Shown here piece after piece: positions 14,119 through 63,726 of a stretch of DNA of 64,000 nt. This stretch comes from an uncultured Methanosarcinales archaeon (GTDB lineage Archaea; Nanobdellota; Nanobdellia; Woesearchaeales; JABIAG01). Numbering within the stretch: the first letter of the stretch is position 1; each line of letters opens with the position of its first letter. The DNA is taken from the NCBI GenBank assembly GCA_964544335.1, contig CAZJAJ010000004.1, positions 67,689 through 131,688 on the forward strand. Direction: 5' to 3'. A program made the translations under genes and the position numbers. The notes below the pieces were generated by a model. That model saw nothing but the letters and a program-made list of their open reading frames with translations. It had not been told where the DNA came from and made no database searches.

Positions 14119-14308
14119 CGCCGGTGCGGGGAGATTCAACTCCGGCCAGATGGCCAAAAATGCCTTTTAAACATTTTCGATAAGTTTTTGAACCCCGATA
14201 CCCTTACAGGCAATAGGTTTTCAATCTATCGGAACGCGAGAAAATCAAAGATTTTCGGCGCCGAGAAAATTTCTAATTTTCCCCGGCACCAGGTTATCCA
14301 ACACCGGC
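14119..14308 (-). tRNA. interrupted tRNA-Ser-like gene (possible pseudogene): 54-nt BHB intron at 59/60, 52-nt D-loop insert, GAA at the anticodon position
   Basis: Removing 14133-14186 and 14236-14287 gives an 84-nt type II cloverleaf colinear with tRNA-Ser(TGA) at 45482; perfect acceptor and T stems, G73. Confidence 0.65.
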
Positions 14309-14420
14309 GTGGTTCTTTTTTATTTTAATTCTTAATATGTATTTTTGATAAATTTTCGAAAATATTTCGGTAATGAAACATTGCAAAAGGTTAAAAAGAC
14401 TACATGTTCTGTATTGATTT

Positions 14421-15056
14421 ATGGAATATCATGAAAGCGATGAGTTTGAGCACACACCATGGTGGAAGGGTCCTCTTGGGATACTTCTTGCATGCGTGGT
14501 ATTGTTTATTTTTGTGATGTCGTATATTCCAACGCAGGCCATTAAGGCAGATCCGCAACCTAGCACTATCCCAACTATTGCAGAAGTGTATAATGGGAAT
14601 AGCAATCAGCAGAATTTTAGCATAACCGATATTAGAGATTTTTCTTCTTACATTGTGACTGATGGGGAAATTAAGCGTGTTGCTGATCGTATTGCTGTTG
14701 CTGCATGTGATGGGGATAGAGTGTGCTATGCAAAGGCAATGTATTACTTTGTTCGAGATAATGTGCAGTATGTGAATGATCCTGTGAAATTTGAGTTTGC
14801 AAAAGAGCCCTCATATACGCTTGAGGTTGGTGCTGGTGATTGTGATGATAGTGCTATTTTGCTGAGCTCACTTCTTAGAAGTGTGGGTATAGAAACTCGA
14901 TTTGTGTTTATTCCACAGCATGTGTATGTGCAGGCAAAGATTCCAGAGGCATTGATTCGATACCAGGATGATGGGTGGGTGAATCTTGATGCTACGTGCA
15001 GAGATTGTGACTTTGGTAGCGTTCCCTATAAGGATGTGACGAGAACATTTATTTAG
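14421..15056 (+). CDS. membrane-anchored transglutaminase-like protein
   Basis: N-terminal TM; GDCDD, HVY and NLDAT Cys-His-Asp triad. Confidence 0.85.
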   Translation: MEYHESDEFEHTPWWKGPLGILLACVVLFIFVMSYIPTQAIKADPQPSTIPTIAEVYNGNSNQQNFSITDIRDFSSYIVTDGEIKRVADRIAVAACDGDRVCYAKAMYYFVRDNVQYVNDPVKFEFAKEPSYTLEVGAGDCDDSAILLSSLLRSVGIETRFVFIPQHVYVQAKIPEALIRYQDDGWVNLDATCRDCDFGSVPYKDVTRTFI

Positions 15057-15078
15057 AGGTGTGTTTTCTCTTGCGGTT

Positions 15079-15501
15079 ATGAATACATTCTCTTTTGAAC
15101 GATGTCCAGGTCTTGTTCGTATGAAAGCTGGGGGCGTTGAAACCAATTATTCTCTTGAAGAATTTAGTGAGTACGAACTTAAAGAGATTGATTCTATTGA
15201 ACGCATACTTGCTATTAGGACAATTGATAAGGAACGAACAACTGATGATGATCTGCTTGATATTCTGAGTTGTTATAGTGTTAAGAGAAGATTATATCAT
15301 GGAGTTTCTAAACGGCTTTTGGAACAAAATCAAACTATTTCTCACACCATACTTGCTTCAGCAGGCATAGTAGGTACGAGTATATTTGCAGGCTCTGTTC
15401 CTTTTATTGTTGTTGGAGCAGTATGCTTTCTTCTTGGACAATATGCTCATGATCGTAACTCACTGGGCAGAAGGAAACTTGAGTATGCGCTCATAGATTA
15501 G
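15079..15501 (+). CDS. hypothetical membrane protein
   Basis: C-terminal hydrophobic hairpin; start 15061 (GTG) or 15079. Confidence 0.5.
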   Translation: MNTFSFERCPGLVRMKAGGVETNYSLEEFSEYELKEIDSIERILAIRTIDKERTTDDDLLDILSCYSVKRRLYHGVSKRLLEQNQTISHTILASAGIVGTSIFAGSVPFIVVGAVCFLLGQYAHDRNSLGRRKLEYALID

Positions 15502-15555
15502 TGTTCTAGGTTTGTGCTTCATAGCACATATGTATGAGGTTATTCTTCTTGGTGA

Positions 15556-60913: not shown

Positions 60914-62400
60914 TTTAGCGTTACCGCATCACCTTTGAGTAATTCTTTTCTTGCAAACTGAAGTTTTTCTTTGTTATCTGCATGTATGGTGAGAATAGTT
61001 TGACCTTTTTTGAGCATATCGCCTTCGTGTACATGTAAATAGATGCCTGCCCCTTGATCGTGTGGCGCTCCTGCAACTTTTGCTACTTTTGCAATTGCTT
61101 TATTGTTGAGGTCTTTTACTTTTCCTTCTTTTGATGCTTTGTAGGTGTAGGTGTATTTTCCTACTTTGATGTCAGATGATTTTATGCTTGATTTTCCACC
61201 TTGTGCTTTTATGATTTCTTTGAATTTTTTAAGAGCTCTTCCATCATCAAGGATTTCTTGTGCTAGACGCTTTCCGTTGTTTGTTATCTTTGCCATTTCA
61301 AGCATCTTTCCTGCCATTTCAACGGATTTCTTTTCTAAGTCTAGTGGGCGAGTATCAGATCGTTGGAGTACTTTTAGGACATCTTTTGCTTCAAGAGCTG
61401 GACCAATTCCATTTCCAATTGGTTCATTGCCATCTGTGATGATTACTTCAAGGTGCATCCCTATTTTTTTACCGATGCGTTTAAAGAGTGTTGCGAGATG
61501 TTTTGCTCGTTTTGCACTGGTTATTTTTGTTTGATTTCCAATTGGAATGTCAATGAGTACGTGTGTTGAACCTACACTTCCTTTTTTTGCAAGAATGCTT
61601 GCAAGCAATTGTCCTTCTGCATCAATAGAGAGTGGTGATTCTACTTGTATTATTTTATCATCTGCTGGTGCAAGATTGATTGCTCCGCCCCACACGATGC
61701 ATCCACCGTTCTTATGTACCATTTTTTGCATTTTCTCTTTGTTGTGTATTACTGGTGCTATTACTTCCATGGTATCTGCAGTTCCTGCAGGTGATGTGAT
61801 TGCTCTGGAGGATGTTTTAGGTATTTTGAGTCCTGCTGCTGCAATAATTGGTACAATAATTGGTGTTGTTCTATTTCCTGCAACGCCACCGGTGCAGTGT
61901 TTGTCAAGTACTATTTCACCTGGGAAGATGAGTGTGTCTCCGGTGTTGATCATTGCTTTTGTGAGGTTGACGGTCTCTTCTTCGTTAAGTCCGTGCACTG
62001 CTGAACCTGCAACAAAATACGTGATTTCAACAGGGCTGAGTTTGCCATATACTAGATCAGTAATGATTTCATTGATTTCTTCTTTTTTGAGTCTTCTTCC
62101 TTCGAGTTTTTCTCTAATATATCTGATAGAATCGGGTTTTTTTTCTAAGTGAATTTTTACGGTGCTTCCGTTTTTACATCCCAAATATTTGAGCACTTCT
62201 TCAAATAAGCCAAGTGATCCCACTTTGACACTTTTTTCTGTGTCTGTGATGTTCATGATGGCATGAGCGTGTCGTTTTTTGTAGACTATTCCGATACGAT
62301 CACCATGGTGCAGTCCTAATTTGAATGCGTCTTTTGCGTGCATGATTACTACTAAGATGCCACCTGATGCAATGTCTACGTCTTTTACTTTGAAATTCAT
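60910..62400 (-). CDS. deoA: AMP phosphorylase
   Basis: [47 protein letters not shown]. Confidence 0.95.
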
Positions 62401-63482
62401 ACTGCGTTCTCCTCATACATGCTAAATAAGGTCATGCATAGTGCTAAAATAATTGGTCCAATGAAGATTCCCATGAATCCAAAGACAAAGAGTCCTCCAA
62501 AAATACCTAAGTACATAATTAATGGTGGGACGTGTGCTTTTTTTCCTGCAAGTAGTGGTCTTGCAAGATTGTCAACGTTTGAGATTACCACTATTCCATA
62601 AATTGCAAGCGTTACTCCGCCCCAGAACATGTTTGTTGTTTCTGTTGCAAGACCAATTGCTATGAAGTAGAATGACATAGGTGCCCATACAAATCCTGCC
62701 CCGATGAGTGGAAGCAGAGAGAGTATTGCAAGCAGAACTGACCAGAGAATTGGTGCTGTGATGAGTGGTTCTGCTCCTGAAAATATGAAATTGAGTATCC
62801 AAAAGCCAACGAGTGCAAAGATACCTTGTACTATTCCTGCACCCACATATCCATACACGATGGATTTTGATAATGTGATAAATCGTGTGAAGATTCTTTC
62901 ACTATTCTTTTTATTGAGTGGAGTTAATTTTCTTATTCCATCTACAATGTGATCACCATCTCTTAGGAAATAAAAGAGTGAGATGAGCAAAATGATGATT
63001 GACATGAATAATCGTGGTAGACTTACTAAGAACGAGCTTGTTTCTGCAACGACTGCTTCTTGTACTTTTTCTGCAGAATCACTGATGTAGAATGCGTATC
63101 TTGGGCTTGAAATGATTTCTTGTACTTCTCCTATGAGTCCGCAGTTTGTTTGATTGTGGCCACAATCACTTTGTCCGAGTTTGAAGAGTGCTTGTTTTAC
63201 TTCAATTACCGCAACAGTGCTTTCTTCTGCTGCTTTGTTGAGAAGAAAACCTGCCGGTACAAGAATGATAGTGAATACGATGAGCAGTGTTAAAAGTGCG
63301 GCTATGGTTTCTGTTCCTGTTTTTTTTCTTAACCATTCGTTGAGTGGTGAGAAAACAAATGCGAGAATAATTGCTGCGATAATTGGTTTTGCAATCGGTG
63401 AGAGCACATAGAGTGCTAGGAGTACGAATATTGCAAACAGTAGATAAAAGAACACCTTTTGGTGTTTTATTTTCCTCTTCAT
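62397..63482 (-). CDS. AI-2E family transporter
   Basis: YFLRDG, LPLIGA, VDNLARP, GIFIGP; start taken at MKRKIK (63482). Confidence 0.88.
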   Translation of the reverse strand: MKRKIKHQKVFFYLLFAIFVLLALYVLSPIAKPIIAAIILAFVFSPLNEWLRKKTGTETIAALLTLLIVFTIILVPAGFLLNKAAEESTVAVIEVKQALFKLGQSDCGHNQTNCGLIGEVQEIISSPRYAFYISDSAEKVQEAVVAETSSFLVSLPRLFMSIIILLISLFYFLRDGDHIVDGIRKLTPLNKKNSERIFTRFITLSKSIVYGYVGAGIVQGIFALVGFWILNFIFSGAEPLITAPILWSVLLAILSLLPLIGAGFVWAPMSFYFIAIGLATETTNMFWGGVTLAIYGIVVISNVDNLARPLLAGKKAHVPPLIMYLGIFGGLFVFGFMGIFIGPIILALCMTLFSMYEENAV

Positions 63483-63509
63483 GATACCTCTTTTTTGATG
63501 ATGGATGTG

Positions 63510-63670
63510 CAAATGGACACGGCCGGAGTTATAACGAAAATATTCATTTTCGAACAACATCCGTTGGTCATTTGTTTTACAAATGGACACGGCCGGAGTT
63601 GTAACACCACTTGTCGTGATGGGACAACTCAGTCCTACCATTTGCTGTGCAAATGGACACGGCCGGAGTT
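63510..63670 (-). repeat. three 21-bp copies of the tRNA-Val 3' end at exact 70-bp period
   Basis: caaatggacacggccggagtt at 63510-63530, 63580-63600, 63650-63670; 49-bp spacers. Confidence 0.95.
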
Positions 63671-63726
63671 GCACCGGCGATCTTCGCCAAGTCAAGGCGA
63701 TGTCATAGCTACTAGACCACGCGTCC
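63654..63726 (-). tRNA. tRNA-Val(GAC), with atypical loop residues; CCA not encoded
   Basis: GGACGCG/CGTGTCC, GTC/GAC D stem, TCGCC-TT-GAC-TT-GGCGA, GCCGG-TGCAACT-CCGGC, A73; 73 nt. Confidence 0.85.

Follow-up and report, generated by a model that had tools for sequence, protein, structure and literature searches.

Site-specific integrases of mobile elements reportedly cross over within the loops of tRNA genes and leave behind a rebuilt gene and a direct repeat, a pattern that Williams is said to have set out in 2002. Here we describe duplicated tRNA ends that accompany far smaller inserts, in a 64,000-nucleotide (nt) stretch of archaeal DNA (contig CAZJAJ010000004.1, positions 67,689 to 131,688; the whole stretch is hereafter called the window). 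Four of the six tRNA genes in the window (Thr, Leu, His, a doubly interrupted gene named here tRNA X, Ser and Val) carry short, hairpin-rich inserts at the T-loop or the D-loop, and a spare copy of the tRNA end nearly always lies alongside. The inserts measure 52 and 54 nt in tRNA X, 49 nt at tRNA-Ser and 45 nt each at tRNA-Val. We regard the tRNA-end-duplicating modules as a real and apparently undescribed family, and we read them, tentatively and at somewhat less than an even chance, as miniature (~45-100 nt), protein-less, hairpin-rich insertion modules that enter the tRNA genes of DPANN archaea at the T-loop or at the D-loop/D-stem.

Crossing over by integrases is common in the T- or anticodon loops of tRNA genes and gives a rebuilt gene and a direct repeat, and a similar model of intron gain via element integration has already been published for Caldiarchaeum (PMC3293823). 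A role as the seed of introns and of split tRNAs, suggested for integrating elements (PMC3293823), is one point of likeness between integrase attachment (att) duplications and the loci described here. These loci share with the SSV-type and pNOB8-type att sites a rebuilt intact tRNA, a direct repeat of its 3′ or 5′ end, a repeat boundary inside a tRNA loop, and arrays that can be stacked. Unlike integrase elements, most inserts measure 45-100 nt and not kilobases, an awkward size for circularisation; no integrase gene was found in the window, no attP match was found in viral contigs, an inverted tRNA copy is present and the hairpins covary.

Bulge-helix-bulge (BHB) tRNA introns at non-canonical positions, together with intron ‘transposition’, were reportedly described for Thermoproteales by Fujishima et al. 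in 2010. Like those introns, the hBHBh′ intron of tRNA X at 59/60 has a 3′ end antisense to the 5′ exon, and similar inserts stand in different tRNAs; unlike them, most of the modules lack a BHB, lie outside the functional gene beside an orphan exon copy, and occur on the 5′ side as well, with a promoter-like box. In DPANN archaea, splicing endonucleases with an L3 loop have been linked to more disrupted tRNA genes (PMC5829648).

The modules resemble miniature inverted-repeat transposable elements (MITEs), palindrome-associated transposable elements (PATEs) and repetitive extragenic palindromes or bacterial interspersed mosaic elements (REP/BIME) in being small, protein-less, hairpin-rich, present in both orientations and multi-copy within a lineage. 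They differ from these in the variable length of the tRNA-end duplication, in the strict targeting of tRNA loops, and in that no dispersed copies and no cognate transposase were identified. Orphan pieces beside intact genes are also known as partial tRNA fragments of prokaryotic genomes, which, on our reading, are usually credited to mobile-element integration (fragments treated in bioRxiv 10.1101/2022.07.05.498093). The pieces reported here differ in their tight coupling to a small, conserved insert with an inverted tRNA copy and in forming regular arrays with a 70-72-nt period. A full-text literature search, outside which most subscription journals lie, returned no account of 45-100-nt DPANN modules with sense-inverted-sense tRNA-end copies, of 70-nt-period tRNA-end arrays, or of promoter-bearing 5′ versions in DPANN.

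Duplicated tRNA ends in the window

The G+C content of the window is 38%, and its aIF2-gamma, TFB and RpoL proteins find their best matches in metagenome-assembled genomes of Woesearchaeota (DPANN); the aIF2-gamma of the nearest relative is 85% identical. No sequencing run containing the window was found. A preliminary description of this DNA had located a set of palindromes, T-loop junctions and one antisense match, and direct reading of the sequence bore out all of its palindrome coordinates, the junctions at 56/57 (Val), 57/58 (Ser) and 59/60 (tRNA X), and the exact reverse complementarity of the 11 nt at 14137-14147 to 63661-63671. It had overlooked the inverted tRNA copies, the 5′-end (D-arm) version and the tRNA-Thr locus. 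At tRNA-Val the parts form an array:

63654-63726, minus strand: intact tRNA-Val(GAC), with an unusual T loop (UGCAACU) and D loop (AGUAGCUA)
63646-63670, minus strand: 3′ piece, copy 1, from A57 to A73 plus the trailer UUUGCACA; within the intact gene
63601-63645, minus strand: spacer S1, with a degenerate inverted 3′ piece (GCAAAUGG..GAGUUG), the hairpin CAUCAC-GACAA-GUGGUG and UUAC
63576-63600, minus strand: orphan 3′ piece, copy 2
63531-63575, minus strand: spacer S2, with a degenerate inverted copy (ACAAAUGA..GGAUGUUG), the hairpin CGAAAAU-GAAU-AUUUUCG (63535-63552) and UUAU
63506-63530, minus strand: orphan 3′ piece, copy 3, 20 nt upstream of the start codon (63485) of an AI-2E-family transporter

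Two units of 70 nt follow the intact gene, each composed of a degenerate inverted 3′ piece, a 6-7-bp hairpin, UUAY and an orphan 3′ piece, and all three copies of the piece share their sequence from A57 onward (56/57). The 3′-end arrays that the preliminary description expected such inserts to leave are seen here in the form of orphan 3′ pieces. A hairpin joins the 3′ end of tRNA-Val to the first nucleotides of either spacer, and a compensatory change keeps it paired (UUUGC/GCAAA vs UUUGU/ACAAA). The hairpin of one spacer contains GC; that of S2 is the CGAAAATATTCATTTTCG palindrome at 63535-63552. No BHB was found at either spacer, the sequence before the 3′ junction not being complementary to the end of the 5′ exon.

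The array is syntenic in a lineage (L010/L024) whose neighbouring AI-2E protein is 64% identical, and is absent from a more distant relative (47% identity) with a normal tRNA-Val. The relative's spacer aligns with the distal window spacer, S2, with GGATGTTGTTC and GTTAT conserved, and both of its hairpins differ in sequence yet still pair (e.g., CATAAATC-CCA-GATTTATG vs CGAAAAT-GAAT-ATTTTCG in the window). The tRNA-proximal spacer S1 is restricted to the window lineage. Since the shared unit is distal and the window-specific unit proximal to the tRNA, units appear to have been added on the proximal side. The number of copies changes between relatives, with two in L010, three in L024 and at least four in L011, and in three marine sequencing runs (Logan contigs) the k-mer depth of the Val unit reached 2.5-3.9 times that of its flanks, a fourth run containing a single unit. 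A metagenome scan with the Val 3′ piece returned 119 loci, two of which were relevant.

Metatranscriptome contigs extend from 14 nt upstream of tRNA-Val through the unit and the last orphan, and others from the last orphan into the AI-2E open reading frame (ORF); these contigs, from the RNA runs X26 and X27, link tRNA-Val, array and AI-2E ORF at L024 12994-13384. The array thus appears to lie within a tRNA-mRNA co-transcript, DNA carry-over being the alternative. In L024 this suggests that the AI-2E transporter mRNA arises when transcription from the tRNA promoter reads through, and that tRNA 3′ processing sets it free.

These contigs, in which tRNA-Val, unit, last orphan and ORF are joined, speak for a somewhat unlikely explanation, according to which the modules would not be mobile DNA at all: they would be selected, vertically inherited cis-acting RNA or promoter elements, orphan and inverted copy folding as acceptor/T-arm-like minihelices or as masking hairpins and marking co-transcripts of tRNA and mRNA for processing, punctuation or promotion. 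It is also favoured by the preservation of the hairpins through compensatory changes across species and copies, by an array that exactly fills the gap between tRNA-Val and the AI-2E gene and leaves 20 nt to the start codon, with no room for a separate promoter, and by the retention of this array at 64% identity of the neighbouring protein. Against it, copy number is free to vary between samples, and the insert at tRNA-Ser lies 130 nt from the next gene.

The tRNA-Val(GAC) itself has G55 in place of U55 in UGCAACU and A at the expected G18 in AGUAGCUA, and the same holds for the L010 lineage (2798-2872); to judge by these paired substitutions, 18:55 may be a covarying tertiary pair. According to a 2026 preprint, tRNA-Val scores under the tRNAscan cutoff in some Nanobdellota orders.

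At tRNA-Ser, one orphan is accompanied by both a sense and an inverted copy of the T arm:

45482-45579, plus strand: intact tRNA-Ser(UGA), with a 14-nt canonical intron
45564-45589, plus strand: 3′ piece, copy 1, from T-loop A58 to G73 plus the trailer TTTCTTTTCT; within the intact gene
45593-45603, plus strand: GGATTTGAACC, perfect reverse complement of the Ser T arm (GGTTCAAATCC)
45605-45612, plus strand: CCGGTTCA, a second sense copy, with the 5′ strand of the T stem and T-loop nucleotides 54-57
45613-45661, plus strand: 49-nt insert at 57/58 of the partial second copy, with the palindrome CAAAAATCTTTAATTTTTG (45617-45635)
45662-45687, plus strand: orphan 3′ piece, copy 2, 26/26 identical to copy 1

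The orphan spans A58 to 10 nt beyond the gene, and the two copies are identical starting at A58 (57/58). The insert ends in ...CAAGG, which resembles the ...GAAGG end of the Ser insert family found elsewhere (see below). As at tRNA-Val, there is no BHB at the 49-nt insert, the sequence before its 3′ junction not being complementary to the end of the 5′ exon. We looked for this locus in relatives through their TFB homologues; the closest contigs stop ~40 nt before the tRNA and the distant ones have no tRNA there. Three independent assemblies of the closest TFB-bearing relative (L135-L137) all stop ~40 nt ahead of the expected tRNA-Ser start, which fits assembly breaks caused by repeated tRNA-end pieces.

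The third locus, at 14.2 kb, is a tRNA gene interrupted twice:

14119-14308, minus strand: tRNA X, a doubly interrupted class-II gene, Ser-like (long variable arm, G73), with the anticodon GAA
14133-14186, minus strand: T-loop intron of 54 nt at 59/60, with a perfect hBHBh′ motif
14235-14286, minus strand: D-arm insert of 52 nt at the D-loop/D-stem boundary (about 21/22)
14352-14363, no strand assigned: palindrome ATTTTCGAAAAT, in the divergent promoter region of tRNA X and a transglutaminase-like gene

With the inserts in place the gene was detected neither by ARAGORN nor by Rfam; with both removed, a clean cloverleaf is obtained, ARAGORN calls an 86-nt class-II tRNA and the T loop reads UUCAAAU. 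The hBHBh′ motif of the T-loop insert consists of helix h (CGGGG/CCCCG), a 3′ bulge UCU, helix H (UUCA/UGAA), a 5′ bulge AAA and helix h′ (ACUU/GAGU); with 12 of 12 pairs formed it scores highest among all candidate positions in the precursor. On this predicted fold, the insert is probably a real BHB intron. It contains two hairpins, CGAAAAUG...CAUUUUUG (14156-14178, the AAAAATG...CATTTTC palindrome) and GGCC-AUCU-GGCC, and also GGCCGGAGUUG (caactccggcc, 14137-14147), which is antisense to the tRNA-Val T arm; an 11-nt match between a 54-nt intron and all tRNAs of the window has an estimated chance expectation of ~0.02. In the nearest relative, which lacks tRNA X at the syntenic site, the spacer between rpoL and the transglutaminase gene measures 133 nt, against 343 nt in the window. 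The intron with its Val antisense 11-mer and the absence of tRNA X from this site of the relative may both be counted toward mobility.

The D-arm insert consists of two tandem ~26-nt units, GCCG(GG)GAAAAU-N5-AUUUUCUCG(G)C, each forming a GAAAAU/AUUUUC hairpin (palindromes GAAAATCAAAGATTTTC, 14240-14256, and GAAAATTTCTAATTTTC, 14265-14281). No canonical BHB that would restore the D arm was found for this insert, and the splicing endonuclease EndA was absent among the scanned window ORFs. The palindrome ATTTTCGAAAAT lies 44-55 nt upstream of tRNA X and outside any insert. Once spliced, tRNA X would combine a Ser-type body and a D arm like that of the window tRNA-Ser with a Phe anticodon (GAA) on a stem that is weak, rich in A and U and mismatched at A31.C39. 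It may be a Ser paralogue in decay, or else a tRNA that serves in mistranslation or recoding.

At tRNA-Thr the duplication concerns the 5′ end:

2847-2944, minus strand: intact tRNA-Thr(GGU), with a canonical anticodon-loop intron
2945-3024, minus strand: insert of 80 nt separating the intact gene from its orphan 5′ piece, with the palindrome GTACGACCTAAAAGGCCGTAC (2959-2979)
3025-3036, minus strand: orphan copy of tRNA-Thr nucleotides 1-12 (GCCTCCGTGGCT)

The TAAAA centre of the palindrome is placed ~25 nt upstream of the tRNA-Thr start, and at ~3063-3076, beyond the orphan on its upstream side, there is ATATTTAAAAAAC, a promoter-like box of canonical form. The old promoter of tRNA-Thr is stranded upstream of the orphan, and the insert carries its own promoter-like palindrome. 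The insert also holds TTGACACGAAGG, 12 nt identical to the end of an insert at locus L203.

Related modules in other DPANN genomes

The comparison set consisted of 80 DPANN loci, obtained from a genome-collection scan with the neighbouring AMP phosphorylase, and the comparison DNA of 0.85 Mb from Woese- and Pacearchaeota with 71 tRNAs. Duplications were sought in two ways, by an annotation-blind search for close direct repeats and by a tRNA-anchored search. About ten independent 3′-piece and about nine independent 5′-piece duplications were found among the 71 tRNAs, mostly at tRNA-Ser. Every module has the intact gene as one neighbour and, as the other, an orphan tRNA end that reaches from the loop to a few nt past the gene. 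The recurrent layout is intact tRNA end, short linker, inverted copy of the adjacent tRNA sequence, hairpin(s) and orphan, the inverted partial copy usually adjoining the intact gene. The duplicated pieces measure from 12 to at least 26 nt and always extend to the gene end; the boundaries of 3′ pieces fall at 55/56 to 58/59 (to 59/60 with the loci of the window) and once at 65/66, those of 5′ pieces at 12/13 and 14/15, and the 5′ copies comprise a short leader and nucleotides 1-14. With a single exception (372 nt, L201), no orphan is farther than 250 nt from the intact gene.

A single family can be aligned from nine inserts of seven genomes, with hairpin B, GTGTCCGAG, hairpin D and YGAMGG followed by the orphan; GAAAAC-TTTTAA-GTTTTC is one of its AT-rich hairpins. 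The core stands in the sense orientation in the T-loop cases and as the reverse complement in the D-loop cases. Hairpin D (5 bp) covaries, 91% of the cells being paired and double changes occurring in three of the five pairs. A profile of the core matches just the nine tRNA-Ser junctions in the 0.85 Mb. In the window, the preliminary description's family of tRNA-targeting mini-elements holds as a real, recurrent class of tRNA-associated inserts; the window inserts do not align as one sequence family, sharing no more than AT-rich words of 8-9 nt where alignable similarity had been expected. Their membership would rest on the architecture and on these short shared words.

The sense-inverted-sense layout of Val, Ser, L176, L177, L178, L204 and L214 raises the question of whether any element is needed, since replication or repair could switch templates at the inverted repeats of T- and D-stems, add filler hairpins and amplify the product later by slippage. 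The boundaries within stem-loops, the identical tandem units of L011 and L024 and the lack of a detected recombinase agree with this origin, which we nevertheless consider quite unlikely. It gives no account of a 45-nt core (GTGTCCGAG, hairpin, GAMGG) conserved in seven genomes at both tRNA ends with no counterpart in the flanking tRNA, of a promoter-like box at promoter distance (~25-27 nt upstream), or of the Val-derived footprint within the tRNA X intron; and L203 carries the same core at Ser(UGA) and Ser(CGA), although these are paralogues.

On the neighbouring-protein tree, a 5′ module in L196 contrasts with 3′ modules at both Ser genes of its sister L203 and with no module in L206; likewise, L210 has a module and L185 none, and L214 has a module and L188 none. 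This patchy state among sister genomes argues for movement of the modules and is the strongest evidence of it. It stands against the vertically inherited functional signals considered above, as presence or absence and 5′ or 3′ placement would both have to change between sisters. The orphans decaying with mismatches in L161, L169 and L196b point the same way, and the use of the core in opposite orientations relative to transcription is hard to square with a single RNA function.

Second tRNA-Ser genes in L203 (7209-7426) and L214 (6636-6790) bear a 60-65-nt insert with an AT-rich hairpin between the D arm and the anticodon stem, and that of L203 has a T-loop insert as well. The tract from anticodon to variable arm in the second gene of L214 is identical to the first gene over 31 nt, suggesting gene conversion between these tandem Ser genes.

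Palindromes and promoter-like boxes

The preliminary description had proposed the GAAAAT palindrome as the signature of the family and a motif count as its check. GAAAAT-N3-6-ATTTTC does exceed the expectation from base composition, with three occurrences in the 64 kb against 0.12 expected and none of 100 shuffles reaching three, and each occurrence falls inside a tRNA insert; two of these exact matches form a tandem duplicate in one insert and are not independent. The looser AAAAT-N3-6-ATTTT occurs eight times in the window against 2.8 expected. Perfect AT-rich palindromes, counted over 0.69 Mb of DPANN sequence, number 1.6 per kb within 200 nt of tRNAs and 2.2 per kb in other intergenic DNA. 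Because their density near tRNAs is no higher than in other intergenic DNA, the palindrome alone is not tRNA-specific; the tRNA-specific feature is the duplicated tRNA end and not the palindrome.

In L166 (6520-6600), a 17-mer identical to GAAAATCAAAGATTTTC stands in tandem with GAAAAATTTCAAAGAAATTTTTC, each followed by GTATCT; the pair lies 140-180 nt downstream of tRNA-Ser and resembles a repeated operator or promoter. The claim of a signature had to be given up, since generic AT-rich palindromes are equally frequent elsewhere and this L166 pair looks like an operator or promoter; the Val hairpin, moreover, differs in the relative.

The element ‘CGAAAA’ followed by an A/T-rich box matches the consensus of the archaeal TFB-recognition element and TATA box (BRE/TATA). 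In the 5′ cases, a AAATTTAAAAACC box stands upstream of the orphan and the centre of a palindrome lies ~25-27 nt upstream of the intact gene (six cases, namely five tRNA-Ser genes and the tRNA-Thr of the window), and in unoccupied relatives a AAATTTAAAAACC promoter is found ~25 nt ahead of the gene. The palindrome at the promoter position of the intact gene is a further point in favour of functional signals. The GAAAAT palindrome is best read as promoter-like or merely as a stable AT-rich hairpin that the modules often carry.

Origin of the modules and their meaning for tRNA introns

From the duplicated ends, loop boundaries, retention of an intact gene, supply of a promoter-like box, patchiness, use in both orientations, change of copy number and the one BHB, all of which are observed, we infer how insertion may proceed. 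Modules would be moved in trans by site-specific (integrase-like) or homology-guided recombination, and a tRNA-end copy borne by the module would rebuild the gene, the displaced end remaining as the orphan. New units would be added beside the tRNA, and unequal recombination could then grow or shrink the arrays. Where no end is rebuilt, survival would be limited to modules able to form a BHB between their 3′ end and the T-loop, which would persist as introns. As regards the route to new introns proposed earlier, one insert does form a predicted BHB intron and supplies the antisense of UUCA; the step from array to intron is inferred, and it is plausible and has a precedent.

Several observations weigh against insertion modules. 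Neither integrase nor transposase nor reverse transcriptase was found among the 40 window ORFs, and no kilobase-scale element was found between duplicated ends within ~4 kb of the 71 tRNAs. Among 2.9 million viral contigs there were no matches to the Val 3′ piece and none to the Ser-family core; the Ser 3′ piece gave six chance matches in high-GC phage ORFs, and the 46 matches of the palindrome alone are uninformative. The window inserts do not score with the Ser-family profile, and identical Val units in L011 and L024 amount to plain tandem duplication. Modules of 45-100 bp are too short for the easy duplex circularisation that classical integrase integration requires, simple att recombination does not predict an inverted tRNA copy, and the compensatory changes in the hairpins suggest that structure is selected at the level of RNA or single-stranded DNA, and so a function rather than pure parasitism.

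The same searches bear on the possibility that the modules are what remains of large elements (tyrosine-integrase viruses or plasmids) that integrated and then lost nearly all of their length, leaving attL, attR and the ends of the arms. A directly repeated tRNA end with its boundary in the T-loop is the classical mark of att sites, the 5′ cases require and possess a promoter borne by the element, and tandem accretion would give the polarity seen in the Val array. We consider this origin unlikely, as no element of full or intermediate length was met at the 71 tRNAs, where the orphan distances given above stay at or below 250 nt but for one, inserts in different genomes converge on one small size and a conserved core, the viral contigs contain no match, and integrase fragments are absent from the window.

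The preliminary description had also looked to an integrase or HUH enzyme as companion; no integrase, HUH or other transposase was found in the window, whose ORFs gave no match to a HUH/Y1 domain. Transposition of single-stranded hairpins by a HUH enzyme encoded elsewhere (IS200/IS605 TnpA or RAYT-type) would suit modules that are mostly imperfect palindromes, occur in both orientations and lack proteins, as PATE and REP elements do. It seems very improbable to us, because it yields no target duplication and tRNA-end copies of 12-26 nt or longer always flank the insert, the flanks (TT|CGA, AT|TAC, CA|AAT, GC|AAC) lack a conserved 4-5-nt target, and the core has no copies away from tRNAs in the 0.85 Mb. 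An IS200/IS605-derived PATE or REP was rejected on the same grounds.

Other classes were also considered and set aside. The Val array is not a CRISPR array, as its spacers are mutually homologous and hold an inverted copy of the repeat, the repeats are the tRNA-Val 3′ end and there are no cas domains. Some 5′ modules contain a box-C-like AUGAUGA with no consistent D box on the same strand, which speaks against C/D-box small RNAs; the geometry of tandem G.A pairs fails to fit a kink-turn, and a consistent core of a hammerhead or other ribozyme is lacking. Rfam, run in gathering mode on the window and in E-value mode on six module loci, returned tRNAs only, and no ribozyme, C/D-box or other family in the inserts. 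An intact gene is present every time, excluding split or trans-spliced tRNA halves; the duplication length varies, excluding Casposon-like staggered integration; and there is no fixed-length target-site duplication of a MITE with terminal inverted repeats, the sole inverted repeat being a copy of tRNA sequence.

The two further tRNA genes of the window lie as follows:

10254-10372, minus strand: tRNA-Leu
11419-11491, minus strand: tRNA-His

Elsewhere in the window, mutS and mutL are intact (3576-7759); in one population variant of the nearest relative (L221 1274-2700 vs L220 949-2700), two short ORFs, of 173 and 80 aa, stand in place of mutL, and mutS is retained. A coding repeat with a 15-nt period at 48505-48624 (six copies, ~8 periods over the stretch) belongs to a 485-aa ORF, and acidic coding repeats (GAAGAAGATCTTGA-like) at 31479-32002 to a 320-aa ORF, neither ORF having a Pfam match. 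A Fic/DOC-family protein lies at the window edge (175-1155, minus strand).

In its strongest form, insertion would be the work of a mobile module that has no recombinase, recognises the D and T elbow loops by hairpin or antisense pairing, rebuilds the gene, brings a BRE/TATA for insertions on the 5′ side and is the direct progenitor of non-canonical BHB introns in DPANN archaea. We hold this version to be rather doubtful; if it is true, the window and its relatives display every intermediate, from insertion through the orphan-exon array to the spliceable intron.

For the study of these genomes, tRNA-end repeats break assemblies, orphan pieces risk being mis-called as tRNAs, and genes like tRNA X escape standard tRNA finders. 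The origin of archaeal tRNA introns and of split tRNAs is a long-standing question, in which seeding by mobile elements integrating into tRNA genes is the leading idea and has very few observed intermediates behind it. One clade now shows many small intermediates: an intact gene with an orphan end and a short insert, arrays that vary between populations, second gene copies with T- and D-arm inserts, and at least one perfect BHB intron. The question of intron origin thereby becomes testable by DPANN comparative genomics and by splicing assays.

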